DNA of 64,000 nucleotides from Flaccisagitta enflata (lineage: Eukaryota): positions 17,980,001 to 18,044,000 of the forward strand of contig OZ231126.1 of the NCBI GenBank assembly GCA_965153355.1, in the 5' to 3' direction. Of the stretch, positions 10,541-59,900 are shown piece by piece (position 1 is the first letter of the stretch; each line of letters begins with the position of its first letter). Both the position numbers and the translations under genes were made by a program. The notes beneath the pieces are model-generated. The model searched no databases, was not told the origin of the DNA, and saw only the letters and a program-made list of their open reading frames with translations.

Positions 10541-13085
<2,545 letters not shown>

Positions 13086-27794: not shown

Positions 27795-27840
27795 ATGAAC
27801 AAGAGGACAATTCCGACGGTGAAAAACATTTGGGCTCAGG

Positions 27841-27934
<94 letters not shown>

Positions 27935-28036
27935 CGATGAAAGTAACGACTGTTGGTACGAAAACCCCGTGTTCGTTACCGAGGAAGATGAAGATGGAAG
28001 CGAAAGGATTCCACCGGCAAGCGATCGGCCGCCATG
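27795..28036 (+). CDS. Chs: Chitin synthase-like gene, probable coding exon 1 (poly-Asn, YENPVF); acceptor at 27751 upstream of the ATG
   Basis: MNKRTIPTVKNIWAQD(N)31DESNDCWYENPVFVTEEDEDGSERIPPASDRPP. Donor tg|gtacac is phase 2 and matches exon 2; an alternative same-phase donor follows 28051. Supported by phase only, no homology. Confidence 0.6.
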
Positions 28037-28118: not shown

Positions 28119-28218
<100 letters not shown>

Positions 28219-28221
28219 ACA

Positions 28222-28525: not shown

Positions 28526-28526
28526 C

Positions 28527-28694
<168 letters not shown>

Positions 28695-28734
28695 CGATGT
28701 AGTATGATTTACTTTGTCTTTTATGTTGCATTAG

Positions 28735-29044
28735 TCTGCCACCTAAATTCGTATACACGATGGATTCCGAAGACGACTGCTCTAGAAGCAAAGGCGTCAG
28801 CGTCGCTGCCACCACCACCACCACCACAACCACCGCTGCCGCCACTACCACCACTGCCACCACTACGACAGCTGCCTCCGCCGCCTCCGCCTCCAACCAC
28901 GACGGAGCCAATACGTATTTCAGGAAGCAGAGTTTAGTTCCGTCGACAGATTACAGAATGGAGGCCAAACTGTCGGACGCATCCTCGATTTGGGATCATG
29001 ATATCTTCGAGATGGAAGAAGCAAAGCCATCTGTCGCTTCCAAG
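28735..29044 (+). CDS. Chs: Chitin synthase-like gene exon 2
   Basis: gcattag|t-LPPKFVYTMDSEDD..(T/A-rich)..SSIWDHDIFEMEEAKPSVASK|gtgtgt. Phase 2 in, phase 0 out. WDHDIF resembles the WDxF motif before the first TM of animal CHS. Confidence 0.72.
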
Positions 29045-38200: not shown

Positions 38201-38671
38201 GTCTGTTTGTCTCTCTGTCTGTCTCTCTGTCTGTCTCTCTCTGTCTGTCTGTCTCTCTCTGTCTGTCTGTCTCTCTGTCTGTCAGTCTCTCTCTGTCTGT
38301 CTCTCTCTGTTTGTCTGTCTCTCTCTGTCTGTCTGTCTCTCTCTGTCTGTTTGTCTGTCTCTCTCTGTCTGTTTGTCTGTCTCTCTCTGTCTGTCTCTGT
38401 CTGTCTGTCTCTGTCTGTCTGTCTGTCTCTGTCTGTCTGTCCGTCTGTCTGTCTGTCTCTCTCTCTCTCTGATCAATGGAACAAGTGACATGGGGTCACA
38501 ATATTGTTGCGGATGGGTGGGCAGGGATGTACAACCCCCATTCACACCCTTTCCCACCCCAAACACAAACAATCACACAGCAGCCTCTAAAATGCAGATT
38601 TTTACAATTTTCAACTCAATTACCACGGACTAATGGACCAACAGACTGACAGACAGACATAGCCTCTTATA

Positions 38672-39631
38672 ACCTTGGGGAAATAAAAAATGGCAGATTT
38701 TTAAATCCTTTCTTCTGAACCTCAACGTAGGAAAAATAGGTTGAAATTGGTGATGCCTGGAAAGCTCTTCGAAAGATCTTTCATTTGAGTTGTGTCTGGA
38801 AATTCTAGCTCAAATGGTTTGGAAACTACAGTGATTTGAATAAGACTACTCATTTTCTGGTCTGCCCGTATCTCAATGGAAGAGAATTTGAAAAAAATTC
38901 AAAGTCATGATAAAGATAGAAGACTTTATCCTATTGCCACAAAATTTTAGGTGGTAATTAGGTTATATGTCATCTCATACCAGTTAAATTTTTGTGTTAA
39001 TCGGATGATTTTTACTATGGTTTTCATACTTTTTTATTCCAGATCTTAGAAAAACGGACCAAATTAACATCATTTGCTTCAGTTGCGTATATTTCTCTAT
39101 TGTCTCAACAAAACATTTTCTTTTATGATCCAGCCTAAAGATCTTTCCCAGAGCTTTAAAACCATCATGAATTTGATGTGATTTTTATCAAATTTTCATA
39201 GTCAAAATGATTTAAAAAGAAACAGGTTGTTATCTCATTACCTTGGGTTTTTCTTGAAAATTTCCAAATCTTTCTCATGATAAAAAGGATAGAAAAAATT
39301 GTCCGATTTGGATAATTTTTTAGGAACTGTTAAATAAAGGTATGTATTTCTTTCAGTTCAAATTTCATCTAAATCAGAGTAGCTTTACTATGGTTTTTGG
39401 ATATTCTTTTTTGAGCAATCGCTCTTCGCATGAGGTCAGTGCAGAAAAGGGGTAGTCTTATTTAAATAGCTCTAACTTTTAAACGGTTTGAGCCAGAGTT
39501 TCCAGACACGACTCAAATGAAAGATCTTTCGAAGAGCTTTCTAAACATCACCGATTTTTGTTAGTTTTTTCTAAATTTAAGGTAGATAGAATTAGTTTTC
39601 AAAATTCCGCCATTTTTTATTTCCCCAAGGT
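38672..39631. mobile_element. TIR element with TA TSD inserted in a HINE-like host
   Basis: ta|accttggggaaataaaaaatggc ... gccattttttatttccccaaggt|ta, with long imperfect arms. Confidence 0.88.
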
Positions 39632-40833
39632 TAGAGTTGCGTGTTCGCAACTAAGAACAGATGGACGACTGACAAACAGACGGGCATAGCCTTTACAGAG
39701 TCCGCGACATAAAATTTAAACTGGGCAAAAGAGGGAAAGAAATTGTCTATGCAAAATGATGTAATTTTTTATAGAGGCTTCGACTTTGTGTGGTTGAAGC
39801 CTTACTCAGGATGAAAGAAAAAAAAATCTGAAACCAGATTTGGAATCAGCACTATCAAAACTATCTTCCCTGTTGAGTAAAACCGCGAATGGGCCTTTTT
39901 GCTAGCGTAAAAGCGTTTTTTGTTTTTGTTTTTTGTTGAACTCCTTGGAAAATGGGTTGTTTTTCATCGCTAAAAGGAGGCATTCTTACTACTGAAACAC
40001 TTCCTAAGTTATACCAGATGATAAAAATTATCAATTAATTGTTTTTAAAACTATTCTGATACTCAATTAGCTTGTTTAAAAAATCAGTCAACTTTTTTTC
40101 TCTCTGGTTCTTCCAACAAACCGAGCCACAGACGTTCCTAATTAATGACAAATCTATCCTTTGATGTCATCTTGTTAACAGCATCGCGTTTTTACTCCTT
40201 GGACTGAGCGTCTTCGTCTTCAAAAACAAATAAAGTAATTCCAACTTGACAAATTCTGTTCACTAGCAAAGCTTTCAGGCGATGGAACTTAGTAGAGTAT
40301 GTTTTAAGGATCTTTTTCCAGCGGCAGTTCTTTTCATGAATGCTTTTGCCAAAGTAGATCATTCAATCATCAAAATTTTCCTCGTTTTTCTATGTATCAA
40401 TGAAAATACTAAAGTAAATGAAGAAAAAATTCATGAGAAAAAAAATTTAGAAAATTTTCTTCAAGATGGCGCCAAGCAGAAATTTCTAACTTGATTCGTT
40501 TAGAAGTTATGATTAAATGAAAATGAAAGGTACAGTTCAAAGTAACATGTGAAAACACTCTTTCTGGCAGTAAGCAAAATTGACCTTTTTTCTTCATATC
40601 ATTGTAATTTCTAAAGTTTTAGAGCTAAAACATTCTTAGACCACTCAAATGGTAGATTTTTTGAAGCTCTTTAAAACGCTCATTGAATTTTCTTAGTTTC
40701 ACTTCTTATGAATGAACCAAGAGGCGTGAAAAAGATGTGCCATTTTTTTTTGGGGGGGGGGCATGGTTATCTGTCTATCTATATGGTTAAATATTTCTTG
40801 CCGTTCGTGTGTCTGTTTGTCTGACTGTCTTTT

Positions 40834-40894
<61 letters not shown>

Positions 40895-40959
40895 AAAATT
40901 GTAGTCATGTACAGCTCATCAACTTGTGATGGATGCACATATTGAGCAATCAAATCAAT

Positions 40960-41022
<63 letters not shown>

Positions 41023-41023
41023 A

Positions 41024-41086
<63 letters not shown>

Positions 41087-41105
41087 ACGAAATAACAAAC
41101 AAAAG

Positions 41106-41483
41106 GTAATCACTCCGCCGACAACAATAACGACACTACGACTTCGGACGTCATCTTCCGCGAGACGATCGTCGAGATCCTCGTCCACATCCCACGCAGC
41201 GCGGGACGCACCCTCCTCCTCCTTTGCTTCCTTACCCCGCACGTCATCCTGCTGACCATCAACGCCACGCGTGCCCTGCTGTCGTGTACGTGGCGTTTGC
41301 CTCGCTGGCGTACCGTCGTCGTCTACGCGGCGTCTGACGCGTCGGCGTGCGTCGGCGTTGGCATTCTGGGCTTCGTGGTGGCGCCGCGTTTGGATTGCGT
41401 TTGCAGAATTTTCCTGGGTTTCGTCGGCGGTGTCGCTGCGCCGACGATTCTCGACACCATCACGACCCTCCTCGGGAGAAGAG
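41106..41483 (+). CDS. Chs: Chitin synthase-like gene exon 4
   Basis: aaaag|gt-NHSADNNND..TLLLLCFLTPHVILLTINATRALLSCTWRLPRWRTVVVYAASDASACVGVGILGFVVAPRLDCVCRIFLG..LLGRR-g|gtacgg. Matches, from recall, the CHS 'VGMALLMFVVLPQIDA' TM region. Phase 1 in, phase 1 out. Confidence 0.82.
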
Positions 41484-41620
41484 GTACGGTGGAACCAGAT
41501 CCGCCGGTAGTGGTCATCCGCAGATGCAAATCTCTATTGGGTCTTCTACATTGTAATTTGCATATTCGGTGATTGCTGTCCTCTGTGTGTATGTGTGTGT
41601 GCGTGTGCGTGTGCGTGTGT

Positions 41621-41706
<86 letters not shown>

Positions 41707-41987
41707 AAAAGAAAAACTATGACGACACAAAAATCTTTGTCGCATGATTATGCCGCTATTTCCTCCTGAAAGGTCCACCCTTCAATTTTGTATGTGCACA
41801 AAAAGCGTAAAAGCGAAGTAAAAAAGCAAAAACAAGTACCAGATTTAACGCATAAAGCTAAAGTCGCATATGCAATGATCAAATCAAGTTGAATACAGAA
41901 GAAAGGATGGAACAAAGACGCAATAAGTGGGCAAAGAAATGGATTCATAAGAAAGCAACTCGACTTGCTCACGCATAGTTTTACCAG

Positions 41988-42076
<89 letters not shown>

Positions 42077-42148
42077 GTCAAACTAATCCCTGTTACTTTA
42101 AACGAAAGGTTATTTTTGTCTTGTAAACAACATAATCTTATCTTGCAG

Positions 42149-43272
42149 AGGCAGTATGGAGGAGAAAACTGGAGCTGACTGGAAAGACCGGATTGGCCTT
42201 TGCGTCTTGCCTAGCCATCGTCTTGGCGGCCTTCCACCTCACGCAGTCGTTTGCACTTTCACAAACAGTGAAGAATAACAACAGCAGCAGCAGCAGCAGC
42301 AGTAGCAGCTACAGCAACAGCAGCAATAACGCCTTTGGTTCAACGAACTTGGACGGCACATCTACAGCGACAAACCAAGAGCCTTCAGTCGCATCTGCTG
42401 CCAAGTATGTTGCAACGTCGTCCCTTTCTTCTGCCTCCTCTATCTCCTCGTCCACCGCCTCTTTCTCTTCCTCCTCTTCAACAGTCACCCTGCCAATCTT
42501 ATTCGTCATTGGCTGCTTTTTGACTTCCTTATTTTGGTGGGACAATTTCGTCACTCGCCCTCCCAAACGCAGTCGCACAGGCGAAGGCAACAGAGCCAAC
42601 GATGACGAGGATGACGACGAAGACGACGACGACGATGGTGATGATTATCGTTTCGTCAACGACTTCAACGAGGATCCTGACGAGGATTCCCACGGCGATG
42701 GTTCATCGTCGTGTCCTCCCCGCTGCGGCGTCAGTCGTTGGCGGTTGACTTGTCGGCGTCTGGTCGCCGATGGAATCGTCGCCTCTCGAATTTTGGTCAT
42801 CATCAGAGCAGCTTGGAAATCCATCTTTTTACTCATCTTTTACCGAGTCTTCGTCCATTTTGATCACGATGGCGGCTGTGGCTATGATGTCTATAGAGGT
42901 GGAGGTGGATATATTAGAGGTAGTGACGGAGGGGAAGGAGATGGTGTTGTTGGTGGTGGAGGTGGTGTCGGCGATGGTGGCGATGTAGGCGTTGGTCATC
43001 ACTCTTCCACCGTCAGCGGCACTTCTTCTCCAGTTTGGGATTCGCGTTTCGATGTCAGTTGGCGCCTGTTTTGGATGTATTTGGGCGCCGGTTACGCGGC
43101 CAAGTTTCTCGTCGTTTCCGGCGTCGCCATGAATATGAAAATCTTGGCTTACGCGGCGCCGCTTTTCGCCGCGCCCGTCGCTTGTTTGGCGGCTCTTTTC
43201 GCCGCTGCCGCGTGGATGGGAAATGATGTAGAGGGCACCCAATGGCTCAAGAGGATCCTCTTTCTCGATTCG
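42149..43272 (+). CDS. Chs: Chitin synthase-like gene exon 5
   Basis: tcttgcag|ag-AVWRRK..LPILFVIGCFLTSLFWWDNFV (CHS 'SCGWWENYV')..AAWKSIFLL..YAAKFLVVSGVAMNMKILAYAAPL..FLDS|gtaaga. Phase 1 in, phase 0 out. Confidence 0.88.
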
Positions 43273-43513
43273 GTAAGATTTAAACTTCTCGATAGTCGCG
43301 TGCACATGACTCTAAAACTCGCTTTGTCTGTCGATCTGTCGGTCTGTCCGTTCGTCGGTTGGTCGTCCAACGGTAACACTTAGTTTTTTTCAGGCGGAAG
43401 GGGGCGGTTTTTGCATAACTGCCTTGTGTCCCTGCCCAAGTTCCTAACCTATTTCATCACTACCCCTTCCCATTACGAAAACCATAATATGACCGAAGAC
43501 AAAGTTACATATA

Positions 43514-43990
43514 CACGCACTTGACTGAGTAACAACGGGTTATTTTTTTCTGAGGCTCAATGTTGCCAATTGAATGACGATATGAGGCTCAAACCGTTGC
43601 TAAACTGTTTTTTTCTCATCAATCTTCTAATATAACGGTTCATTACGATGTTTGTTCTAACATTCCTTTCGCTGCTTTCTCTGGAATGAAAGGGATCTAG
43701 AGTAGGAATAGAATATAGGAGAACAATCATTCAAAATCAGGAACAAAATATTGTTTTAACTAAAATGCAGTAGAAAAAGCCACCCCGTCTGTGAAACCGC
43801 CGCATTTTACAATTGAATGCAACGGAAATTATGGCGAATCTAAGAGAAAACTTGTTATTGGATGGACTTGAGGCTGAAATGTTGTTAAATTTTTAATTTT
43901 CTGACGATGTTGCTAGAAATGTTCTTATTTTTTTGACATTTTGAGCCTCAACGTTGTTATAAAAAAGGTTGTTACTCAGTCAAGTGCGTG
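43514..43990. mobile_element. MITE with TA TSD
   Basis: ta|cacgcacttgactgagtaacaac ... gttgttactcagtcaagtgcgtg|ta. Confidence 0.88.
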
Positions 43991-45010
43991 TATCTGATCG
44001 CTGATAAAGAAAAGTAAAAGCGTGTGAGGGGAAGAAGCCCAGGGGAATGATTTCTTGAGAGCCTTGGAAAACAACATAGAACTACAATTTCAAGAATTTC
44101 CTTTGAACTCCTATGTAGGCATAAAAGTGTCATTAACTTGCTGTCCAGGCCATAGTCCGGACAAAGCGACATGCCAGCGTAGGTGATCAGATATTTTTAT
44201 TTTTTTTTGCTACGTGTACCGCCCAAAGACACGCCACTTGGGCAGCCACCTATCCGGCCTTGTTCTGATAATGAAGATTGTTAGATCATCCATTAATATA
44301 TTTATAAGACAAGAAAGATGCCGAAAGAGGAGTTTCTCTTTCCCGATATCTCGATATCTCGATATCTCTTTTGTAAGAAGAGCATGTTGATATGACATGA
44401 TATGATATGGAGAGTGCCAGGTCATCCATCATTATCGCCCAAAAAGTTACCGCTTTTTTCCCCCTCTTGTTTATGGGAAAATCGACCCAAAAATAGTATG
44501 TTGGTTTGTTCAATATGTACAACAAACGAAAGCTCACATAAAATAAAAATGTGGGAAGGGGCAATTATGAAAAGGGCTGTCCAAGCATTTTTGTTTTCCA
44601 TCGTAATCAAGAGGCGCTCGTGAATGGCGCATAGCGCTTACATAATTCTAAATCCAACTACAAACCGAACGAGTCCTTCTCGTTTTATGTAAGCGATGAT
44701 TAATCTCATAACTTTAACGATTGCCAATAACATTCCAACCGTTGCACAATTCTTTTTTTTAACAAGTACAAACTAACGAGTACAAACTAACGAGTACAAA
44801 CTAACGAGTACAAACTGACGATAAGATTCGCCACGTAGCGAAGCAGGATGCATGTTCTTTAAAGTTTTTAAAGCAAGCGTGAACAGAGACATGAAAGCAA
44901 CACACCAGACGAACCGACAGATCGACCGATTGACCGATGAACCGAAGTAAAGTAACTTTGATTTGCCGGATACATGGGCCAAGACGGTGCGCCGGGCGTT
45001 ATTTATTCTT

Positions 45011-45227
45011 AGACCTATCCCTAGCTCCGTTAGACATATTCATAGCTCTATCAGACCTATCCCTAGCTCTATCAGACCTATCCCGAGCTCTATCAGACCT
45101 ATCTTAAGCTCTATTAGACCCAGAGATGCAGATTCCGCAAGCTGCCGCGTAGCAGAATTTTTGTCTCACGAACTTCCGCAGCTTTCTTTCTTTTTTCTTT
45201 CTTTCTTTCTTTTTTTCTTTCTTTTTT

Positions 45228-45295
<68 letters not shown>

Positions 45296-45423
45296 TTCAC
45301 AAGTTCATCTCTTCCTTCCTGTAGCAATTCCATTCTTCTTTTTCTCCTTTACCCCTTTCATAGCCTTCCTTTCCTCTCCTGCCACATCTGCCGCACTTTG
45401 GGCCTTGCCTTTCTTTCTTTTTT

Positions 45424-45495
<72 letters not shown>

Positions 45496-45770
45496 TTTTT
45501 TTTCTTTTCACAAGTTCATCTCTTCCTTCCTGTAGCAATTCCATTCTTCTTTTTCTCCTTTACCCCTTTCATAGCCTTCCTTTCCTCTCCTGCCACATCT
45601 GCCGCACTTTGGGCCTTGCCTGCCGCGTAGCATTGCTACTTTGCTACCATGAATCTGCATCTCTCATTTAGACCTATCACCAGCTCTATCAGACCTATCC
45701 CTAGCTCCATCAGACCTATCACCAGACCGATCCGACCTATCACCAGACCTATCTGACCTATTCCCAGCTC
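45011..45770. repeat. 21-bp minisatellite (agacctatccctagctctatc) interrupted by a ~210-bp tandem duplication containing (CTTT)n
   Basis: cacaagttcatctcttcc..gggccttgcct is present twice; gccgcgtagca flanks both sides. Confidence 0.8.
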
Positions 45771-46110
45771 TAACTGACTTAACCATAGCTGATTATTTTA
45801 GTGAATGAAATGACGAGTATCATCAATGATGAACGAAATGAGTTTTCAGTTGATTTCAAACATTTTTAGCGATTTTTCTTTCGAGCGTGACCGACGGGCG
45901 GACAGAGCCTCTTAAAAAGGTGCTATGGCGCATTTGAGAATCAACCTAGCATATTTCTGAATCATTTCCAGTGATTTTTGCTTCTTTTCGAGATTTTCAA
46001 CTCGAACGTGACCGACCAACCGACCAACCGACCAACAGACAAAGCCTCTTATAGAGGTACTATGGCGCACCTAAAAAGGAAAAAACCCTTTCACCATCTC
46101 TCTCATTCAG

Positions 46111-46538
46111 TGGTCATTGACCAAAGACACTTGGGATCAAATCGTGGCGCAGATGCCTCAAACGCATCTCTTTGGTGGCGCAGATTCATCCCCTACAAAC
46201 ATGAATCACCATGATCATCAATTACCCTCCTGTGCGCTCGTACCAACGACCCCGATGTTGTTAGGCTGTTGGTTAGCGGCGCTCATTTGCATTCTGGCCA
46301 TGTTGGTGCGCGATGTGGTGACGACGGAGGTGACGGGGGTGGTGAATGGCGCCGATAGCGCCGCGGTTGGCCAAAGTGGTGGTGGTGGTATCAATAGCGG
46401 CGGCGTCAACGACGACATTGCCGGTGGTGGCTTCGGTGGCATATCTCTCTCCTCGTTCTCATCCACGCATCGCCTTTTTACGCGAGATAAAATGGATTTT
46501 TCCCCGGCGTTTACCGAAGTGGATTTCATTCTTTCCAG
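46111..46538 (+). CDS. Chs: Chitin synthase-like gene exon 6 (last + strand exon)
   Basis: ctcattcag|WSLTKDTW..MLLGCWLAALICIL..THRLFTRDKMDFSPAFTEVDFILS-ag|gttagc. Matches, from recall, CHS 'TEKLF..PMY..DQSMALNRR'. Phase 0 in, phase 2 out. Confidence 0.85.
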
Positions 46539-48193
46539 GTTAGCTCCCAGATTCAAGTATAAATTGCCTCCGGATAATTGATCTCTTTAACGGCTGATAG
46601 GTCATTTATCCTTGATAAGTTGATACTGCTACAACATGCCAGCCGAGAGATTCAAAAACTGGAAGAAACCAATACCTAATAGGCTATTAAACTGACATAC
46701 TGATCCATGTTGAAAAGTAACTTTCTTTCTGTGGATAGTACGCCGGTTGCATCCCGGAAATACGCCAAATCATGCCTTTGCGCCCACCTCACAATGTTCC
46801 TTTGCAAAAACCTGACTGGACGAGCCCATGCGCAACTTTCTACGCGCGCGGGAACCTTTTTTAGGGCGCTGTCAAAGATTAGAGGGTTGAATGTGACTGG
46901 GACTCGTTTCTCTCGCTTACATAGAGAGATAGCACACTGGCCCAGTATCACTCATAACTCAATCTCTTCAAATGATAAGATATAGTGTTCTTATGAATAA
47001 ATCCAAGCCTGGTTGAACCTGGATCGACATTTCTCATCATGATAATGTCACTGCAACAGCTGGAAGCGAGGCGAATTTAATGTGAAAAATTACCAAAATT
47101 TTCAAATCTTCATGATTCCATAATTTGTCTCCGAATAGAGGGGGCTCATTCGACACATTTTAGTCGCGTGCTACTCGATTCTATAAGCCACTTTTTGGTC
47201 CGTTGGTCTGTCGGTTTGTCACAAAACTGTAAAAAAGGTGTTTAAAAATAGTTTCTCTGTACACGGTCGCTGCCACAAGAAATTAACAAGTGCTGGATAC
47301 ACGGGCTACTCTAGTCGCGTGCAGGTGGGCAGGAGCAAAGCCGGAGAAGGCCACTGGGTCATCTGGGCAGGAGCCGTATGGACCGACAATCCGACAAAGC
47401 AGGGTGTAGTTACATAGCACGCAATAAAAATAATTATAATAACTATGGCAAAATAAAAAAAAACGGTAATTTTCAAAATGATATTGTGAGCTCAATTTTT
47501 AAACCAGCTTTATAATTTTCTAGACCATGATAGTTTGTCAAATTTGCTACTTAGCAAAAAAATCAGATCTGAAAGTTGATTTTTGGTGCCTATAGCATTG
47601 ATTTTGGCAAAATTACTTCATTGAACAATCGCTGTTAGTATCAGTTTCAGTTTAGATCTAACTTTGAAAATCAACTGTGAGCTCAATTTTTAGAGCAAAT
47701 TAAAATTTTTGAGATGGTGATAGCATGTCAAATTTCTGACACAGTGAAAAAAACAGAACTCAAAAAAGTTTATTTTTGTAAATGCAACATCAATTTTTGT
47801 AAAATTGGTTGAAGTTGGATGGTCAAAATAAAAAAACATTATTCAGAATTGATTTCAAATGTTAATTTTTTTTTGTAGCTTCATATTTTTTTTAGATGAT
47901 AATGGTATGACAAGTTTTTGACACAGCAAAAAAATCAGAACTCAAAAAACTGTATTTTTGCACTAGTATCATCAATTTTTGAGAATAGACCTCCAATAAA
48001 AACTCTAGAATTGATATCCAGTTTTGACAGATTTTACAAGAATTGATGTAGAAGGTACAAAAATAGACTTTTTTTAATTCTGATTTTTTTGCTATGTCAG
48101 AAATTTGACCTGCTATCACCATCTCAAAAATATTGATCTTGCTCTAAAAATTGAGCTCAGAGTAAATTTTCAAAGTTTGATCTGAACTGAAAC

Positions 48194-48203
48194 NNNNNNN
48201 NNN
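48194..48203. other. Scaffold gap (10 N)
   Basis: N run. The left flank ends inside an inverted repeat (47644-48193) and the right flank starts inside a 21-bp tandem repeat. Confidence 0.99.
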
Positions 48204-50014
48204 CGAGCCTCAAGGCTGGGATTTGAGCCTTGAGGCTGGGATTAAGCCTTGAGGCTGGGATTTAAGCCTTGAGGTTGGGATTTAAGCCTTGAGGTTGACG
48301 GGTTTCGAGGCTGGGATTTGAGCCCAGGCGGTGATTTGAGCCTCCAGGCAGGGGTTTGAGCCTCCAGACTGGGATTTGAGCCTCGAGGTTGAGATTTGAG
48401 CCTCAAGGCTAGATTTGGGCCCCTGAAGCTAGAATTTGGGCCCTCGAGGGGGGCACGCTGGAGAAGGAGGAGGAAAAATTCCCCTGTGTGAAAGCATAGG
48501 TCACAGTTCCCGGGGCCGCTCAAAAAGGGAGAAAGAAAGAATAAAAGGGGGAAAAAAAGAGAAGGGAAAGAGGAAGAACAGGTCGCCCAATGGGCAAGAA
48601 TATGTGGTCAGCGATACTCAAGGCCCTGTTTCTATGCAAGATTAAACGGAGGAAAGGAGCAGTGGCCCCAGGACAAACCTGTAGAACACGGGGGACTTTT
48701 CATCTGTCATTCTAAATCATCTGTCCATCCGGCTGTTCCCAGTAGTTCTTTCAGAATTGTACTTCATTAGAAGTTACATGTGCTAGCACAAATCTGCCCT
48801 CTCAGACTGAATCTGCTTAGGCAGATTTCAGGCCCTGGGCAGATATCAGGCCTGAGAGGGCAGATTTCCAGGCCTTCAAGGAGAGGCAATTTCAGGCCTA
48901 GAAGATAAATTAAGGCCTGAGGCAAGATTTCAGAGCCTGAGAGGGTAAATTTCAGGCCTGAGAGGACAGGTTTCAGGCCTGAGAGGGCCGGACGAATGGA
49001 CAAACGGACAAACGGACGGGCGAAGCGCGAACAAAAAGAGATCCCCTGCTCTGCACACAGGACCTCGTCCCCCTTGGGGCCGCTGAGGAACTAAAAAGAA
49101 AGAGTCATCCAAGGATCGCACATGGTCAGCGGTACCCGATGCCTGCTTGGAGTGATTAGCTGAAGAAGTGGAGGTAGGGCAGGGCAGCGGCCCCTAAGTG
49201 CCGATGTCCTGTAGGACACAGGGTGGAAATTCCATACATCTAAGGAGAGAGGGCATTTAGAATTTTGCATTTTTTCAATTTTTGTCAATTTTCCATGTTA
49301 TTCAATAGAACTTGAGGTCTAAGGAAGCTGGATATAAGAGCTAAGTGTGCTGGATTAGAGCCCAGGATGCTGGATTAGAGCCAGGGGCTGGTTTGTGGCC
49401 TGAGAGCTGGTTGAGGCCCAGAAGCTGGTTGAAGGCTAGAAGCGGAATTTGAGGCATGAGAGGCTGGATTTGAGGCTTGAGAGGCTGGATTTGAGCCCTG
49501 AGAGACTGGATCTGAGGCCTGAGAGGCTGGGTCCAGGCCTGAGAGGCCAAATTTGAGCCTGAGAGGCTGGATTTGACTGAGAAGCTTTGAGGGGGCGGAC
49601 GGACGGACGTGCGTACGTAAAAGGTCACCCTGTGTCCTACAGGACATCGGCCCTTTGGGGCCGCCGCCCAAAAAGGGGAAGAAAAAAAAAGAGAAAGAAA
49701 AAGAAAAAAGGAAAAGAAGAAAGGAAACGAAAAAGGAAACAGAGGAAAGGAATGAGATTTTTTTTCTCTAGACAAATCATGATTTATGAACAAAAGACAC
49801 TGTTTTACTCCTCATGAATCATAATTTCTCAGAGTTTTTAATTTCACCAGTATTTTTTTCACATTTTCTGCCCAAACCTGCGCATCTTTTTAAACAATTA
49901 GAAAATCGTTTGAAAACACTGTTTCTTGTGAATTGTGTTTGTAAAATTGTTTGATCTCTGAAATCTGCTCTCTGTGAAGGGCTACTTTTTTCTTTGCAAT
50001 TGATCATACAATTG

Positions 50015-51033
50015 ATGGTTGGTCAAGGTCGACCAAGAGATATAGGATGTAATAATTTATCTGGCTTTTCAAAAAGGAAAGCAAAAGATGACAAAGAAAA
50101 AAAAGAAAACAAGCTTTTGGCAAAGATGCCTAGATAAAACAATTGTTTTAAGCGTGGTGGAAGTTCCTCACAGGAAGCAGGTGAAAGCTCCCAGTCTTTG
50201 GATTCCTCTCAATCTTTGGCCCAAAATGACTTAGAAAATGAAAAAGAAAATGAAAATGAGAGTGAAAGTTCAAATGAAAGAGGAAGTCAAAATGAAAATA
50301 AAAACAGAAGTGCTAATGGAAATAATAATGTAACTGCAAGTGAATATGTAAATGAAGATGAAAATGAAAAGGCTGATGAAACTGCAAATGGAATAAATTG
50401 AATCATTCTGAAGATGTACGTGAAAATCAAAGTACACCATCACTTAATCTTATAACATCATTTGACCTTGGAACATGGCCAGCAGTGATAGATCGCAACA
50501 ATCAAGATCACCTTATTTGTAGAGGAAGTTTAGATTATCAACACATGAATGGGGATTTTAAGGAATCTAAACGTTTTTAAGAAAATGAGAAAAAAAATCG
50601 ATTTTGTTCAAAATCAGTTTTTATCAAAATTCATAAGCTTACCAAGGAATCCCTAAAGAGAAATTGGCTCTGCTTTTCTCCCAGCAAAGGATGTCTATTT
50701 TGCTTTCCTTGCTAAGTGATGAACAAAATTCCTGAAAGATTTTCTGAAAATGGATTTAATGACTAGAAAAGTGCTACTGTGTCTATTAAGAAGCATGAGC
50801 ATAGCCTTGCACACAGAGAAGCTCTAACATCAATTACTAGTTGGAAAATGGATAAACCATGCATTGATTCAAGCCTCGTTCATGCATTTGAAAAAGAAAA
50901 AGAATATTAGCAAAAAATATTAACAAGAATTATTGAGGTATCAAATTTCTTTCAAAAAAAAACCTTAGCTTTTCAAGGAGACAATGAAACTATTGGATCA
51001 GTGCATAATGGAAATTACCTTGGTATTCTTGAA
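50015..51033 (+). pseudogene. Degenerate hAT transposase (ZMYM1-like / TTF zinc finger), N-terminal half
   Basis: Fragments LSGFSKRKAK, DLGTWP, RNWLCFSPSKGCLFCFPC*, GFND*K..IKKHEHSLAH and LAFQGDNETIGSVHNGNYLGILE, with several stops and frameshifts. GGGCCCC-rich subterminal sequence at ~51170-51220. Confidence 0.82.
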
Positions 51034-51341
51034 AATGGTCTCATTATAATGTTTTTGCATTGAGTGTAAGAATTCTTGATCAAACAGCTATGGCTTTATC
51101 TTAATTACAAAAAGCAATACAAATATTTTGCCTGTATCATATGTTTGCTTCAACATGTTGCATCTAGTGGGGGGCCCCGCTACCTTAAGTGCCTAGGGCC
51201 CCGCACACGGTTCCGGCCCAGATGTCCGGAACAAAAAAGAGAACAAACAGAGAAACAAACATACAATCGAACAAGTAAACTAACGACCAAACAATCAAAC
51301 AAACGAGATAGTAGCCAGGTAGCCAAATTGTTTTAGCTTAC

Positions 51342-51471
51342 CTGCCCCCGTAAGGAGTTGGAATGAAGGCAGGCGGCTGAATATCGGCGAAAAGTCTATT
51401 TTCCAGTTTGTGTGCGACGGGAAAAAGCTTGAGAAATCGATGAACAAACTCATTGAATTCAACACTTCCAT
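51342..51471 (-). CDS. Chs: Chitin synthase-like gene exon 11
   Basis: gggcag|at-GSVEFNEFVHRFLKLFPVAHKLENRLFADIQPPAFIPTPYGG-ag|gtaagc. PTPYGGR is a conserved animal CHS motif. Confidence 0.92.
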
Positions 51472-51565
51472 CTGCCCGGTGAAAAAAAAAGATGGCGAAA
51501 ACACAATAACGGAATCGAAAATTCAATTTTGATCAAAGATTATTCAGAGATTAGAGAGAGAGAGA

Positions 51566-51613
<48 letters not shown>

Positions 51614-51760
51614 AGACATGAATCGAAGGAAACAAACACAAGCACAAACATGGGGAAAAACACATGCAGACAGCAGACAAACAAATACATCATGATCCTC
51701 CTTCCCCCACCCCCTCGTCATACCTAGACAGACAAAAAACAGAGAAAAACATCGATAAAC

Positions 51761-51882
51761 CTGGATTTTGTTTGACAGCGTCGTCAAAAATGATGTGAAA
51801 TTCGATTTGGAAGAAATCTTGAGTTGTGCTAAGAGGATGAGTGGAATGAAACACTTTTCTCGCGTAGTTGTCTGAGTCCATT
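51761..51882 (-). CDS. Chs: Chitin synthase-like gene exon 10
   Basis: tttcag|a-MDSDNYARKVF..QDFFQIEFHIIFDDAVKQNP-g|gtttat. Matches CHS 'MDEDQCARR..EFETHIFFDDAF'. Confidence 0.92.
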
Positions 51883-51999
51883 CTGAAATGAATCCAATGG
51901 GCATTACGACTGGGCAGTATTCTTCAATGAGCTATTGGGTAGGGGAAGAATCAGTAAAAATCTTGTTAACGCCCGCTCAAGAACACACACGCACACTTG

Positions 52000-52031
<32 letters not shown>

Positions 52032-52053
52032 CACACACACAAACCCTTTCTAC

Positions 52054-52124
52054 CTGAGCAGTGAGCGAATGAGGCTGAGTATTTCTTTCTCAGTTTCATG
52101 CCACATGGTCGCACAAACAAACAC
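52054..52124 (-). CDS. Chs: Chitin synthase-like gene exon 9 (start of the catalytic GT2 domain)
   Basis: tttcag|VFVCATMWHETEKEILSLIRSLL-ag|gtagaa. CATMWHET is a CHS signature. Confidence 0.95.
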
Positions 52125-52691
52125 CTGAAAATATGATCTTTTGTTATCAAAATCAAAACATGATCATGATGTAGGTATGAAAGATGCATCATGATAAATG
52201 TATCCGTTATTGCCACCATATGAAATATAAAAAAAATGACATCAAGGATTGTAATCTCTTAGTAAACAATCTTTTAGATTCTGAAATGAAGGTTCACGAT
52301 TCTTGGCACAGTCAAATTTTACTCTAACAGATTACAAGGGACGACAACTTTTTCGGTTTGCCATAGACAATTCAAACATAAATTGGTCAGAAGTCCGTTA
52401 CTCGCAGAGCCGTTAGAGCGAGTCTATGATTAATATGAGAGGCTGAGTCCCTCCATCTGTTCGTCCGTCCATCCATCCATCCATCCATTCATTCGTCATT
52501 ACGTACATTAAGAAATTTGAGTATTAACGTCCGTGCCCAGTGGTCAGTCAATGATGGATCTTAGCCATCTTTCCAGCAACTTGCTCGGTAATGATCTCCC
52601 GCTTAATCCACCGCTCCTAACTTGACAGGCGCGGCGTCGGAAACGTCTGTCCTTATCACATCTGATGATGGCGATGATTATTCTAGAAAGC

Positions 52692-52775
<84 letters not shown>

Positions 52776-52810
52776 AATAAAGAAAGAAAGAAAGAAAGAA
52801 AGACGTTCAC

Positions 52811-52938
52811 CTTCGGAATCTTCTTTGATTTTTCTCCGTTTGGATCATTAAAGAAAACTTTTCCATAGGAAGAAGAAGCCACAGATGTCACTGATGACGC
52901 GGAAGATAACGAACCACCTGAATAGAAAGAACGATAAC
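52811..52938 (-). CDS. Chs: Chitin synthase-like gene exon 8
   Basis: ttgtaaag|gt-YRSFYSGGSLSSASSVTSVASSSYGKVFFNDPNGEKSKKIPK|gtgaac. Phase 1 in, phase 0 out, fitting both neighbours. Confidence 0.8.
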
Positions 52939-53079
52939 CTTTACAAAGCAGAGGGGCAGGCATGGCAATGAGCGTTTTAGTCGCGGATTAGCGACTCTTT
53001 CTGAATTATGAGGCTTTGTCCGTCTTTCCGTCTTACCAACGGACGGACCATGACCAACAGTCATACGCGCGCGCACGCG

Positions 53080-53164
<85 letters not shown>

Positions 53165-53815
53165 ACGCACACACACACACACACCTATACCGAATCAGAT
53201 TTGGATTTGATAATGGCCTCGAGAACAAGGCCAAGTAGGCCAACGATGCGTCCTCTTTGAATGAACGTTTTTTATGAATGAATGTTTTTTTTATGAATGA
53301 ATGTTTTTTTATGAATGAACGTCTTTTGTAATGAATGAATGATTGAATGAATGAATTACTTGATGTATGCTTCTTTTACTGGGGTAGAACCACTTTTCTG
53401 TTGAAAAAATCCTTGATTTTGATATTTTTAATGAAAGCGTTACCAACAGACCAACAGACCAACCAACCAACCAATGGACACAGCCTATTATAGAGATGCG
53501 AGGACGCATCTAAAAAAAATGATATCAGTGACCCGCGAAAGAAATCGAATCCATTTTCATACAGATTGGATTAAAGATAACTTCCACTGACCCCAGACGC
53601 GGCTTCAAAATTCTATCCTATCTCTCTGACAATCTGTCAGCGCGTCATAGGCGTATTTGCGATAACAGCTCATGGCTCATTGACACCCTCTGGCAAATCT
53701 GTCATCGATTCATATTCGGCGAAAGAGAAGAGATCATTTCCTTTGTCAGCTCAAAGATATTCTTAAAACGATATTGAAACTGATACTTTTTTTCCTACAA
53801 AATGAAATTTCAAAC

Positions 53816-53931
53816 CTCTGCCAATGGTGGATTTGAAGTCATCCGCATTTTTCAGTCCGTTCCTCCGGGCTGCTATTTTGTTTTGTCGCAGCAAATCCAT
53901 CACAACGTCGTAAAACTCGAGATGTCGCCTC
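53816..53931 (-). CDS. Chs: Chitin synthase-like gene exon 7
   Basis: ataatcag|g-RRHLEFYDVVMDLLRQNKIAARRNGLKNADDFKSTIGR-g|gtttga. The phase-2 start completes exon 6 to give ILSRRRH. Confidence 0.75.
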
Positions 53932-53953
53932 CTGATTATCAATAACGATATGT

Positions 53954-56900
53954 AGACAGGAGACAACACCCCTCGCGACCTCTCACGCTGATCAGTTAGA
54001 ACTAGGTAAACATAAGATCTTGTTCTGAGCCCAGAGGTTGAGTAGGGTAGCAATTTTTTGAGTTGGCTCCTAAGCTGAAGTGCTGATGAGTGGATTGAAA
54101 TAGTTTTTGGACTTAGATTGTAGAATTTGACCGCAAAAAACTCAATTGGAAGTAATATACGATATTTATGCAAATTTGCCCAAAAAGTAGCTGAGTTGGC
54201 TTGTAGGCAATATCAGGAAAAATCAAACTGGTGGATTTGGATTTTTTTAGCCCAAATCCCTTTAGTAACATCTAATGAGCATAACCCAAGTTCAGGATAA
54301 CTTGGGAAAATTCATTTTTTGGATATATTGATGATGGATTTTGGGTTGTCAAGCTTCAAAAATCCGTATTTGAGAAGGTAGTACTACGTAAAAGGGGTGA
54401 ATTGGTCATTTTGAAGGCAGTTCAGCCCAAAATTCAATTTTGTAGTCAAAGTACAATGTTCAAGGAGGATGCACACCAAAAATCATCAATGTGCTTGCAT
54501 TTTTTTACACTGTGACACAGATTTGAAAATGCTCAAAATACCCTTATTTTTCAGATGCACCCTATTGTCTCCCTTCTTATAAGAGAATCTTGATATTATC
54601 AAACCTGTATTTTTTGGCTTGTTTGTTTATTTTTTGACTAAGTAAGCATGCTAACATGTAAACAAGTTAAAAATACCTTTAATACCATTCATAGAACCCA
54701 AAATTTGAGAAAAATCCACCAAATAAAGCCTAAATTCTCCTCAATTTTGACCTTCTCAATATTAGAGCAAAACAGGTGTTTTTCAAGCCAATTTTAACCT
54801 GTTTTGGGCCTGGTATGTCTAGCAAATGGCCCAAATCTTGTTTTTCAGCATTACAAGTTCTCTTTTTCTCAGTTTCTGATGGTTTCAGATCAGTTCTTAA
54901 AAATATGTATAGTGACCCCCTCTTAATAAGACAGGAGACAACACCCCTCGCGACCTCTCACGCTGATCAGTTAGAACTAGGTAAACATAAGATCTTGTTC
55001 TGAGCCCAGAGGTTGAGTAGGGTAGCAATTTTTTGAGTTGGCTCCTAAGCTGAAGTGCTGATGAGTGGATTGAAATAGTTTTTGGACTTAGATTGTAGAA
55101 TTTGACCGCAAAAAACTCAATTGGAAGTAATATACGATATTTATGCAAATTTGCCCAAAAAGTAGCTGAGTTGGCTTGTAGGCAATATCAGGAAAAATCA
55201 AACTGGTGGATTTGGATTTTTTTAGCCCAAATCCCTTTAGTAACATCTAATGAGCATAACCCAAGTTCAGGATAACTTGGGAAAATTCATTTTTTGGATA
55301 TATTGATGATGGATTTTGGGTTGTCAAGCTTCAAAAATCCGTATTTGAGAAGGTAGTACTACGTAAAAGGGGTGAATTGGTCATTTTGAAGGCAGTTCAG
55401 CCCAAAATTCAATTTTGTAGTCAAAGTACAATGTTCAAGGAGGATGCACACCAAAAATCATCAATGTGCTTGCATTTTTACAACTGTGACACAGCTTTGA
55501 AAATGCTCAAAATACCCCTTATTTTTCAGATGCACCCTATTGTCTCCCTTCTTATAAGAGAATCTTGATATTATCAAACCTGTATTTTTTGGCTTGTTTG
55601 TTTATTTTTTGACTAAGTAAGCATGCTAACATGTAAACAAGTTAAAAATACCTTTAATACCATTCATAGAACCCAAAATTTGAGAAAAATCCACCAAATA
55701 AAGCCTAAATTCTCCTCAATTTTGACCTTCTCAATATTAGAGCAAAACAGGTGTTTTTCAAGCCAATTTTAACCTGTTTTGGGCCTGGTATGTCTAGCAA
55801 ATGGCCCAAATCTTGTTTTTCAGCATTACAAGTTCTCTTTTTCTCAGTTTCTGATGGTTTCAGATCAGTTCTTAAAAATATGTATAGTGACCCCCTCTTA
55901 ATAAGAGAATCTTGATATTATCAAACCTGTATTTTTTGGCTTGTTTGTTTATTTTTTGACTAAGTAAGCATGCTAACATGTAAACAAGTTAAAAATACCT
56001 TTAATACCATTCATAGAACCCAAAATTTGAGAAAAATCCACCAAATAAAGCCTAAATTCTCCTCAATTTTGACCTTCTCAATATTAGAGCAAAACAGGTG
56101 TTTTTCAAGCCAATTTTAACCTGTTTTGGGCCTGGTATGTCTAGCAAATGGCCCAAATCTTGTTTTTCAGCATTACAAGTTCTCTTTTTCTCAGTTTCTG
56201 ATGGTTTCAGATCAGTTCTTAAAAATATGTATAGTGACCCCCTCTTAATAAGACAGGAGACAACACCCCTCGCGACCTCTCACGCTGATCAGTTAGAACT
56301 AGGTAAACATAAGATCTTGTTCTGAGCCCAGAGGTTGAGTAGGGTAGCAATTTTTTGAGTTGGCTCCTAAGCTGAAGTGCTGATGAGTGGATTGAAATAG
56401 TTTTTGGACTTAGATTGTAGAATTTGACCGCAAAAAACTCAATTGGAAGTAATATACGATATTTATGCAAATTTGCCCAAAAAGTAGCTGAGTTGGCTTG
56501 TAGGCAATATCAGGAAAAATCAAACTGGTGGATTTGGATTTTTTTAGCCCAAATCCCTTTAGTAACATCTAATGAGCATAACCCAAGTTCAGGATAACTT
56601 GGGAAAATTCATTTTTTGGATATATTGATGATGGATTTTGGGTTGTCAAGCTTCAAAAATCCGTATTTGAGAAGGTAGTACTACGTAAAAGGGGTGAATT
56701 GGTCATTTTGAAGGCAGTTCAGCCCAAAATTCAATTTTGTAGTCAAAGTACAATGTTCAAGGAGGATGCACACCAAAAATCATCAATGTGCTTGCATTTT
56801 TACAACTGTGACACAGCTTTGAAAATGCTCAAAATACCCCTTATTTTTCAGATGCACCCTATTGTCTCCCTTCTTATAAGAGAATCTTGATATTATCAAA

Positions 56901-59900
56901 CCTGTATTTTTTGGCTTGTTTGTTTATTTTTTGACTAAGTAAGCATGCTAACATGTAAACAAGTTAAAAATACCTTTAATACCATTCATAGAACCCAAAA
57001 TTTGAGAAAAATCCACCAAATAAAGCCTAAATTCTCCTCAATTTTGACCTTCTCAATATTAGAGCAAAACAGGTGTTTTTCAAGCCAATTTTAACCTGTT
57101 TTGGGCCTGGTATGTCTAGCAAATGGCCCAAATCTTGTTTTTCAGCATTACAAGTTCTCTTTTTCTCAGTTTCTGATGGTTTCAGATCAGTTCTTAAAAA
57201 TATGTATAGTGACCCCCTCTTAATAAGACAGGAGACAACACCCCTCGCGACCTCTCACGCTGATCAGTTAGAACTAGGTAAACATAAGATCTTGTTCTGA
57301 GCCCAGAGGTTGAGTAGGGTAGCAATTTTTTGAGTTGGCTCCTAAGCTGAAGTGCTGATGAGTGGATTGAAATAGTTTTTGGACTTAGATTGTAGAATTT
57401 GACCGCAAAAAACTCAATTGGAAGTAATATACGATATTTATGCAAATTTGCCCAAAAAGTAGCTGAGTTGGCTTGTAGGCAATATCAGGAAAAATCAAAC
57501 TGGTGGATTTGGATTTTTTTAGCCCAAATCCCTTTAGTAACATCTAATGAGCATAACCCAAGTTCAGGATAACTTGGGAAAATTCATTTTTTGGATATAT
57601 TGATGATGGATTTTGGGTTGTCAAGCTTCAAAAATCCGTATTTGAGAAGGTAGTACTACGTAAAAGGGGTGAATTGGTCATTTTGAAGGCAGTTCAGCCC
57701 AAAATTCAATTTTGTAGTCAAAGTACAATGTTCAAGGAGGATGCACACCAAAAATCATCAATGTGCTTGCATTTTTACAACTGTGACACAGCTTTGAAAA
57801 TGCTCAAAATACCCCTTATTTTTCAGATGCACCCTATTGTCTCCCTTCTTATAAGAGAATCTTGATATTATCAAACCTGTATTTTTTGGCTTGTTTGTTT
57901 ATTTTTTGACTAAGTAAGCATGCTAACATGTAAACAAGTTAAAAATACCTTTAATACCATTCATAGAACCCAAAATTTGAGAAAAATCCACCAAATAAAG
58001 CCTAAATTCTCCTCAATTTTGACCTTCTCAATATTAGAGCAAAACAGGTGTTTTTCAAGCCAATTTTAACCTGTTTTGGGCCTGGTATGTCTAGCAAATG
58101 GCCCAAATCTTGTTTTTCAGCATTACAAGTTCTCTTTTTCTCAGTTTCTGATGGTTTCAGATCAGTTCTTAAAAATATGTATAGTGACCCCCTCTTAATA
58201 AGAGAATCTTGATATTATCAAACCTGTATTTTTTGGCTTGTTTGTTTATTTTTTGACTAAGTAAGCATGCTAACATGTAAACAAGTTAAAAATACCTTTA
58301 ATACCATTCATAGAACCCAAAATTTGAGAAAAATCCACCAAATAAAGCCTAAATTCTCCTCAATTTTGACCTTCTCAATATTAGAGCAAAACAGGTGTTT
58401 TTCAAGCCAATTTTAACCTGTTTTGGGCCTGGTATGTCTAGCAAATGGCCCAAATCTTGTTTTTCAGCATTACAAGTTCTCTTTTTCTCAGTTTCTGATG
58501 GTTTCAGATCAGTTCTTAAAAATATGTATAGTGACCCCCTCTTAATAAGACAGGAGACAACACCCCTCGCGACCTCTCACGCTGATCAGTTAGAACTAGG
58601 TAAACATAAGATCTTGTTCTGAGCCCAGAGGTTGAGTAGGGTAGCAATTTTTTGAGTTGGCTCCTAAGCTGAAGTGCTGATGAGTGGATTGAAATAGTTT
58701 TGGACTTAGATTGTAGAATTTGACCGCAAAAAACTCATTGGAAGTAATATACGATATTTATGCAAATTTGCTCAATGCTTAGATGAGTTGGCTTGTGGGC
58801 AATATCAGGAAAAAACAAACTGGTGGATTTGGATTTTTTTAGCCCAAATCCCTTTAGTAACATCTATTGAGCATAACTTAGGTTCAGGATAACATGGGAA
58901 AATTCATATTTTGGATATATTGATGATGGATTTTGGGTTGTCAAGAACTTAAAATAAGTATTTGAGAAAGGTAGTTACTAATAAAAGAAATTAGAAGTGG
59001 TCATTTTGAAGGCAGTTCAGCCCAAAATTCAATTTTGTAGTCAAAGTACAATGTTCAAGCTAAAATCATCAATGAGCATTTTTAACTGTGACAGCTTTAA
59101 AATGCTCAAAACCCACCCTTTATTTTCGGATACCCTATTGTCTCCTTCTTATGAAATCTTGATATTATCAAACCTGTATTTTTTGGCTTGTTTGTTTGTT
59201 TTTTGACTAAGTAAGCATGCTATCATGTAAACAAGTTAAAAATACCTTTATTACTATTCATATAACCTAAAAATTGAGAAAAATCCACCAAATAAAGCCT
59301 AAATTCTCCTCAATTTTGACCTTCTCAATATTAGAGCAAAACAGGTGTTTTTCAAGCCAATTTTAACCTGTTTTGGGCCTGGTATATCTAACAAATGGCC
59401 CAAATCTTGTTTTCAGCATTACAAGTTCTCTTTTACTCAGTTTCTGATGGTTTCAGATCAGTTCTTAAAAATATGTATAGTGACCCCCTCTTAATAAGAC
59501 AGGAGACAACACCCCTCATGACCTCTCACGCTGATCAGTTAGGACTAGGTAGACATAAGATCTTGTTCTGAGCCCAGGGGTTGAGTAGGGTAGCAATTTT
59601 TTGAGTTGGCTCCTACGCTGAAGTGCTGATGAGTGGGTTGAAATAGTTTTTTGAACTTAGATTGTAGAATTTGACCGCCAAAAACCTCAATTAGGTATGT
59701 GAATATTTATGCAAGATTTGCCCCAAAAAGTAGCTGAGTTGGCTTGTAGGCAATATCAGGAAAAATCAAACTGGTGGATTTGGATATTTTTGGCCCAAAT
59801 CCCTTTAGTAACATCTAATGAGCATAACCCAAGTTCAGGATAACTTGGGAAAATTCATTTTTGGATATATTGATGATGGATTTTGGGTTTTTCAAGCTTC

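Follow-up and report, generated by a model that had tools for sequence, protein, structure and literature searches.

A chitin synthase gene in Flaccisagitta enflata is probably split across opposite strands by a mis-oriented contig

Insect chitin synthases have an N-terminal domain of nine helices followed by a catalytic domain that opens at the motif CATMWHET, which in insect chitin synthase 1 (SfCHS1) occupies residues 579-586 of 1572, according to the part of the source consulted (PMC6355952). In Drosophila mod(mdg4), trans-splicing involves a strong U1-binding pseudo-5' splice site (the TSA core) in the last 5' intron, as described in the sections consulted of PMC4387717. That Hi-C scaffolding can leave contigs mis-oriented is documented in the excerpt consulted of 10.1101/064352. 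Here we analyse a locus within a stretch of 64,000 nucleotides of F. enflata DNA (the window). The locus resembles SfCHS1 in the order of its parts, in an exact CATMWHET and in having approximately nine helices first. Long low-complexity inserts (an Asn run and Ser/Thr, acidic and Gly-rich stretches) shift its CATMWHET to approximately residue 886 of the joined model, compared with 579-586 in SfCHS1. As in mod(mdg4) and lola (PMC4387717, sections consulted), the 5' exons are on one strand and the 3' exons on the other, with canonical splice sites. In contrast to those genes with their many alternative 3' exons, the window has one constitutive 3' part, and the strand switch falls on an assembly gap. 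A repeat-bounded contig, an N-gap join and a gene that switches strand at that join are also what is seen with mis-oriented contigs (10.1101/064352, excerpt consulted). We estimate a probability of roughly 75% that this is one chitin synthase gene and that one contig was placed backwards in the scaffold.

The - strand half covers the linker and the start of the catalytic domain:

53931..53816, - strand: exon 7, G + RRHLEFYDVVMDLLRQNKIAARRNGLKNADDFKSTIGR + G, AG acceptor at 53933-53932
52917..52811, - strand: exon 8, Ser-rich linker ...YGKVFFNDPNGEKSKKIPK
52124..52054, - strand: exon 9, VFVCATMWHETEKEILSLIRSLL, catalytic domain start
51882..51761, - strand: exon 10, MDSDNYARKVF...IEFHIIFDDAVKQNP
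51471..51342, - strand: exon 11, DGSVEFNEFVHRFL...FIPTPYGG + AG, phase 2, GT donor

These are the five exons (53931-51342) that an earlier sequence-only reading had proposed, and each is bounded by AG at its acceptor and GT at its donor site, with phases that chain. CATMWHET is exact in the exon at 52124-52054, and PTPYGG is also exact; the FFDDA named along with them in that reading is in fact IFDDA. The spliced exons were compared with two environmental proteins that belong to Pfam Chitin_synth_2 (1.7e-29 and 5.6e-28): P0006, of 1853 aa, is an open frame of the marine metagenome locus L066, and P0007, of 1100 aa, comes from locus L063. Blastp, with E-values computed against this two-protein set, aligned them from the linker through PTPYGG with P0007 (E 5.2e-17; 31% identity over 112 columns) and with P0006 (E 4.8e-15; 35% identity over 117 columns). 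The tblastn search of the - strand part against 80 chitin synthase loci gave E-values down to 6e-22. By similarity, these matches show the - strand part to encode a predicted animal-type chitin synthase (GT2, Chitin_synth_2 PF03142). Pfam searches of seven exon frames returned no relevant family; in P0006 the Pfam model starts only at residue 707, which follows the PYGG point where the exons of the window stop. Three exon frames gave no match in word-index protein searches, nor did two in PDB sequence searches. HMMER with the CATMWHET frame against 1.84 billion representatives gave 3 matches with E up to 0.001, namely one repetitive 2081-residue protein without an aligned stretch and two short fragments carrying the CATMWHET motif. 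Among the variants listed for the - strand exons, all eight were at third codon positions and seven of the eight were synonymous. The frame is therefore under purifying selection, which implies a working gene.

The + strand half, by contrast with the six exons previously proposed, was modelled as five:

27795..28036, + strand: exon 1, ATG at 27795, run of ~33 Asn, GT donor, ends in phase 2
28735..29044, + strand: exon 2, Thr/Ala-rich, ...SSIWDHDIFEMEEAKPSVASK; AG/GT, phase 2 to 0
41165..41483, + strand: exon 3, first hydrophobic helices; AG/GT, phase 0 to 1
42149..43272, + strand: exon 4, several helices, low-complexity inserts, WW.N[FY] at 42535
46111..46538, + strand: last + strand exon (exon 6 of the sequence-only reading), last helix, ...RLFTRDKMDFSPAFTEVDFILS + AG, phase 2

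Every site of this chain (27795-46538) is AG/GT and the phases are compatible, the acceptor of exon 3 (41165..41483) being the least certain splice-site choice of the model. The exon at 46111-46538 is flanked by AG (acceptor) and GT (donor), and its final codons are ATT CTT TCC + AG. The + strand exons are predicted to encode a multi-pass membrane domain: a Kyte-Doolittle scan (above 1.6) of the product revealed 10 hydrophobic windows, some of them overlapping, which correspond to ~8 to 10 helices. The scan, together with collinearity with P0006 and the presence of WW.N[FY], is consistent with an N-terminal domain of approximately nine transmembrane helices. The helices are collinear with those of the N-terminal domain of P0006. 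Full shuffling reached the alignment score in 2/300 trials and local shuffling in 7/300, and the two proteins share WW.N[FY] as well as blocks resembling APL..A.P.AC. The comparison with P0007 was non-significant, its score being reached by 25/300 and 98/300 shuffles. A tblastn search of the 80 chitin synthase loci with the + strand part gave no match at E 0.01, and an ESM Atlas search with exon 4 gave no usable match. The WW.N[FY] in this half is the only occurrence in the window (1 among 127,996 six-frame residues); across the 80 loci the motif occurs nine times, and in seven of these it precedes CATMWHE and shares its strand. There is thus modest evidence that the + strand half is part of a putative chitin synthase, its N-terminal similarity to P0006 and P0007 being weak.

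The exon ending at 46538 in phase 2 and the exon at 53931 (G, AGG CGA CAT) together read ...DFILS-R-RRHLEF. The cross-strand junction ILSRRRH noted from the letters is thereby confirmed, a phase 2 end and a one-base start joining in frame, although phase compatibility by itself is expected by chance in 1 of 3 cases. In the ten-exon model all nine junctions have AG/GT sites and their phases chain, so that the splice-site and phase match stands for nine junctions; the count of ten was not reproduced. The joined frame is stop-free over 989 codons. The LSRRR created at the junction had been likened to the LNRRR of other chitin synthases. Its register is right, but the similarity is statistically non-significant: on a profile of the LNRRR block (25 positions, seven loci) the joined segment scored 6.9 bits, with E ~1 among 3265 frames, and was outranked by chance frames, and pairwise tests across the 46538|53931 junction reached a z of 2.5 at best. 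One RNA run from the same study, of which ~6/100 was read, yielded 93 reads that aligned only in part and exclusively to repeats; bins composed of exon sequence all had zero depth, and the run was uninformative for expression and for the junction.

The two halves are separated by the following features, with a tandem array beyond exon 7:

46539..48193, + strand: start of the intron 3' of the last + strand exon, left contig end
48194..48203, no strand: 10-N scaffold gap, sole N run of the window
48204..51341, - strand: region 3' of the last - strand exon, right contig end
53954..64000, no strand: long-period, high-copy tandem array that reaches the window end

The switch of the exons from the + to the - strand coincides exactly with the sole N run (48194-48203). 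From ~47440 the left contig end is an AT-rich high-copy repeat with inverted arms, at a depth of 85,900-146,443 compared to ~100-150 on exons. On the right, 48204-51341 contains 20-21-bp minisatellites at 48205-48449 and 49349-49576, plus other repeats. Depth over the repeats of both flanks ranges from 85,900 to 1,135,902, again against ~100-150 on exons, and bears out the earlier remark that both gap flanks are repeats, here of very high copy. No gap-bridging contig was present among the public DNA contigs of three runs, which are short unitigs and reach a few hundred bases at most on unique parts. The 15 joints among those listed (there are 310 further) all lie within or between repeats and include 0 strand changes. 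Pfam searches with eight frames from the flanks and the satellite gave no match. Several units of the satellite array (53954-64000) are 100% identical over 447 bp. In gene orientation the array edge (53954) is 22 bp upstream of exon 7; an array so close to the exon could also mark a rearrangement breakpoint, which counts against mis-orientation.

Each exon is present only once in the window, in agreement with the view that the halves do not overlap. When P0006 and P0007 were searched by tblastn against both strands of the whole window, no further chitin synthase exon was found, and none was detectable between 51341 and the gap, as had been read from the letters. Neither half therefore continues across the gap as scaffolded. 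The sequence-only reading had proposed tblastn as a way to the remaining catalytic-core exons, and this retrieved none in the 64,000 nt: unlike in SfCHS1, QMFEY, EDR, QRRRW and the translocation motif SWGTR are absent from the window by tblastn with P0006 and P0007. The exons that would carry these catalytic signatures lie outside the window, and the gene is incomplete here. A 12-residue match to GxDRWLC (29044-29009, - strand, E 9.2) was rejected as chance, as it lacked supporting flanks. X1 contig depth was 101-141 on pieces of the + strand exons and 66-120 on pieces of the - strand exons; the similar depths give no sign of extra copies, by what is a weak measure.

As expected of a scaffold orientation error, the strand switches at an N gap whose flanking contigs both terminate in repeats, and turning one contig gives a collinear open frame of 989 codons. 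The earlier proposal of a mis-oriented contig is partly supported by these features, by the complementarity of the halves, by selection on the frame and by the lack of a trans-splicing motif. Since the contig was most likely placed backwards, the arrangement is probably an assembly error and not new biology; we infer that the + strand part and the - strand exons form one gene, with scaffolding as the cause of the break. The proposed arrangement is a single-copy gene for an animal-type chitin synthase, a family 2 glycosyltransferase, and would span both contigs. To the left of the 10-N gap, one contig would carry the N-terminal multi-helix domain, and to the right the other would carry the linker and the first catalytic part (CATMWHET to PTPYGG). 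This right-hand contig, which extends from 48204 to beyond 64000, was probably wrongly oriented or otherwise mis-joined. With the right contig flipped, the exon at 46538 would be followed by a long intron filled with repeats and satellite and then by the exons from 53931 to 51342. After the exon ending at 51342, the C-terminal helices and what is missing of the catalytic core would be expected on a further contig.

Two separate convergent genes, a + strand chitin synthase paralogue or other membrane protein and a - strand chitin synthase, would require ...ILS + AG to vanish and G + RRH to appear in matching phase by coincidence. The later + strand exons would then be hidden in the gap or elsewhere, and the first - strand exons would lie to the right of the window beyond the satellite. 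There is room for such exons, as the 10-N gap has no known size and the view upstream of exon 7 ends at 64000, and the modest support for the + strand half as a chitin synthase also favours two genes. However, the window has no duplicated exon, the + strand half carries the rare N-terminal chitin synthase motif WW.N[FY], and contig depths, although a weak measure, are similar for both halves. Two genes are thus an unlikely explanation. We consider it very improbable that a real inversion, fixed or polymorphic, has left a broken chitin synthase gene. Its breakpoints would be in the intron after 46538 and either past exon 11 or at the edge of the satellite (53954), where the array adjoins exon 7 at 22 bp, and the repeats on both sides could have mediated the rearrangement. 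Yet one breakpoint must coincide with the assembly gap, the only long inverted repeats linking the left and right sides of the gap are microsatellites, and no similarity was found between the left flank (46539-48193) and the right contig. Moreover, all ten exons retain open frames and AG/GT sites, and the third-position placement of all eight listed - strand exon variants fits a working gene rather than a dead fragment.

Cases of opposite-strand trans-splicing are very rare, and the U1-binding core motif of mod(mdg4) is, to our knowledge, known from insects only. That the scaffold is correct and two opposite-strand transcripts are trans-spliced into a working mRNA, as in mod(mdg4), is scarcely credible: canonical sites, a donor at 46539 and an acceptor at 53932, would join in phase, and the - strand frame is under selection, but the exons after 51342 would still be unaccounted for at the same gap, and, unlike in mod(mdg4), the 13-nt core motif with <=2 mismatches does not occur in 46539-48193, its 2 matches in the window (1.37 expected) both being located elsewhere.

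If one contig is indeed mis-oriented, automatic annotation would split, truncate or miss this chitin synthase gene. For an enzyme central to cuticle or shell formation, a split or missed gene biases both gene counts and orthology, and the probable error flagged here is one that assemblers can correct. If the orientation is real, the locus would be of note in either case, as an essential gene that was broken recently or as a rare example of trans-splicing between opposite strands. The latter would constitute a mod(mdg4)-like case outside insects, in an essential enzyme gene of a marine animal.

The sequence-only reading placed one chitin synthase on both sides of a scaffold gap, with six plus-strand exons facing five minus-strand exons. 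The gap (48194-48203) is the only N run in the window. We confirmed the five minus-strand exons, with AG acceptors, GT donors and phases that chain across all of them. Of the six plus-strand exons, claimed without coordinates, five could be chained and the sixth was not reproduced:

27795-28036, plus strand: first plus-strand exon, ATG at 27795; AG/GT chain, phase-compatible
28735-29044, plus strand: second exon; AG/GT, phase-compatible
41165-41483, plus strand: third exon; AG/GT, phase-compatible, its acceptor the least certain of the model
42149-43272, plus strand: exon 4; AG/GT, phase-compatible
46111-46538, plus strand: last plus-strand exon; AG/GT, ends ...DFILS plus AG, phase 2
53931-53816, minus strand: exon 7; AG acceptor, GT donor; reads G+RRHLEFYDVVMDLL...STIGR
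52917-52811, minus strand: exon 8; AG acceptor, GT donor; Ser-rich linker, ends KKIPK
52124-52054, minus strand: exon 9; AG acceptor, GT donor; reads VFVCATMWHETEKEILSLIRSLL
51882-51761, minus strand: exon 10; AG acceptor, GT donor; MDSDNYARKVF...IIFDDAVKQNP
51471-51342, minus strand: exon 11; AG acceptor, GT donor; DGSVEFNEF...FIPTPYGG+AG

Joined, the ten exons (five from each strand) give 989 codons with zero stops, and the proposed cross-strand junction, ILS-R-RRH, was reproduced by joining the end at 46538 to the first base at 53931. The first coding exon carries ~33 consecutive Asn codons (27850-27950), and exons 2 and 4 carry Thr/Ala, Ser, Asp/Glu and Gly-rich tracts; this run and these tracts are atypical of the N-terminal domain of a chitin synthase.

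Queried singly, the exon frames had no match by word-index protein search, in Pfam or among PDB sequences. With the CATMWHET frame as query, a full HMMER scan recovered the same motif in only two short unnamed fragments; a third match was a spurious repeat protein. These two fragments and the window frame were aligned, and a scan of metagenome contigs with the alignment gave 80 loci with a CATMWHE-type exon. Long open frames were present in two of these, P0006 (locus L066, 1853 aa) and P0007 (locus L063, 1100 aa), both assigned to the Pfam family Chitin_synth_2 (1.7e-29 and 5.6e-28). The spliced minus-strand exons matched them from the linker to PTPYGG (blastp E 5.2e-17 and 4.8e-15, two-protein set), and tblastn against the 80 loci gave E as low as 6e-22. 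The absence of a Pfam match on the window exons is explained by the position of the Chitin_synth_2 model, which begins only beyond the PTPYGG point (P0006 residue 707). In insect enzymes, as described in PMC6355952, a nine-helix N-terminal domain is followed by CATMWHET at the start of the catalytic domain and then by QMFEY, EDR, QRRRW and SWGTR. None of these last four motifs was found on either strand of the window, which therefore holds the first part of the gene only. Among loci L017-L054, many are nearly identical chitin synthase loci found in several metagenomes, with a common exon starting exactly RLFVLPQYCGTLLEQCLMLNRRRN and ending CATMWHETANEM; in that lineage a single exon thus contains both the LNRRR block and CATMWHET.

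Modest but consistent sequence evidence suggests that the plus-strand half encodes the N-terminal domain of an enzyme of this type. Its product has 10 hydrophobic windows over threshold, some overlapping, suggesting about 8 to 10 helices. In gapped local alignment it is collinear, helix by helix, with P0006 residues 91-548, at a score reached by 2/300 full shuffles and 7/300 local-window shuffles; P0007 gave no significant alignment (25/300 and 98/300). No match to this half was found at E 0.01 when the 80 loci were searched by tblastn; few of them include N-terminal sequence. The rare pattern WW.N[FY] occurs nine times in the 80 loci (six-frame translation, 794,888 residues). Seven of these occurrences follow a hydrophobic stretch and precede CATMWHE by 0.8-2.1 kb on its strand; the remaining two are one chance match, repeated. 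Its single occurrence in the window (127,996 six-frame residues) is at 42535, in plus-strand exon 4. The plus-strand end, RLF...AFTEVDFILSR, lies in register with RLFVLP.Y...Q.L.LNRRR, the block before the linker in many loci, a likeness that is not statistically significant. With a seven-sequence profile of that block the joined segment scored 6.9 bits (E ~1 among 3265 frames, chance frames scoring higher), and pairwise tests across the junction gave z <=2.5.

The donors at 46539 and 51341 both face the gap, and neither half can continue across it as scaffolded. Of the 1655 bases from the last plus-strand exon to the gap, the end is an AT-rich repeat with inverted arms. The 3138 bases from exon 11 to the gap contain minisatellites; a short interspersed element was noted as well:

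48205-48449 and 49349-49576: 20-21-bp minisatellites, GAGCCTCGAGGCTGGGATTT-like, inside an apparent very high-copy element; top depth of the stretch, to ~1.1 million
46010-46060 and 53440-53510, similar near 43330-43380: short interspersed element, a (GACCAACC)n-like part, then ...TATAGAGG...

In contigs of two DNA runs from the same organism, depth was ~66-141 on unique exon pieces, and 85,900-146,443 (left) and 350,226-1,135,902 (right) in the gap-side bins. Very high-copy repeats therefore form the two contig ends, which bears out the earlier claim of repeats on both gap flanks. At 53954, 22 bp ahead of exon 7 as the gene reads, a tandem array of long period begins and continues to the window end; several of its units match at 100% identity across 447 bp, and public DNA contigs put its depth at ~257,000, about 2000x that of unique parts. 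Sub-periods lie near 347, 975 and 1322 bp. The left flank has no similarity to the right contig, and all long inverted repeats that pair the two sides are microsatellites. Elsewhere, the strongly skewed stretch 10001-12000 (GC skew 0.57, AT skew 0.41, 2-kb bin) is probably a purine-rich simple repeat.

The runs found comprised DNA runs from the organism itself, marine metagenomes and a single RNA run. Across 42000-54300 the DNA contigs are short, with none spanning the gap; there are at least 15 contig joints, those listed all falling within or between repeats. The portion of the RNA run examined, about 6/100 of it, gave only 93 partial placements on repeats and zero on exons. Most of the few reads placed from this run, X16, sit on the interspersed element's copy at 53440-53520 and have loose ends at either side, so that this element must be transcribed at some site in the genome.

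A pair of convergent genes, the partner exons of each being hidden, would be an unlikely arrangement. Searches found no exon-7-like sequence on the plus strand from 46539 to the gap, no N-terminal domain exon on the minus strand at 53932-64000 and, as first reported, no further chitin synthase exon from 51341 to the gap; exon duplicates are absent from the window, and neither half repeats the other, again as claimed. A real inversion is less probable still. Variants were taken from 40 of 151 difference rows; the 16 in or beside exons were used and the 24 in introns and repeats left out. Among these listed rows, 13 of the 16 are at coding positions. All eight in the minus-strand exons fall on third codon positions (chance ~1.5e-4 by our own arithmetic), seven synonymous and one E to D; the plus-strand exons have two synonymous and three nonsynonymous variants, two of the latter in a low-complexity stretch. 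Purifying selection in the population thus acts on the minus-strand frame, evidence against its being the dead remnant of a real inversion. Trans-splicing from opposite strands is very improbable. The U1-binding core motif that drives it in Drosophila mod(mdg4), according to PMC4387717, had no match with <=2 mismatches in the intron after 46538, a weak test here for an insect motif.

The most economical reading, retained from the sequence-only reading at a probability of about 0.75, is one working chitin synthase gene with the contig right of the gap placed backwards. Scaffolding is documented to mis-orient contigs, more often where they carry little linkage information (10.1101/064352). With the right contig turned round, a long intron with the satellite array would come next, then exons 7-11, and after exon 11 the gene would continue on a further contig.
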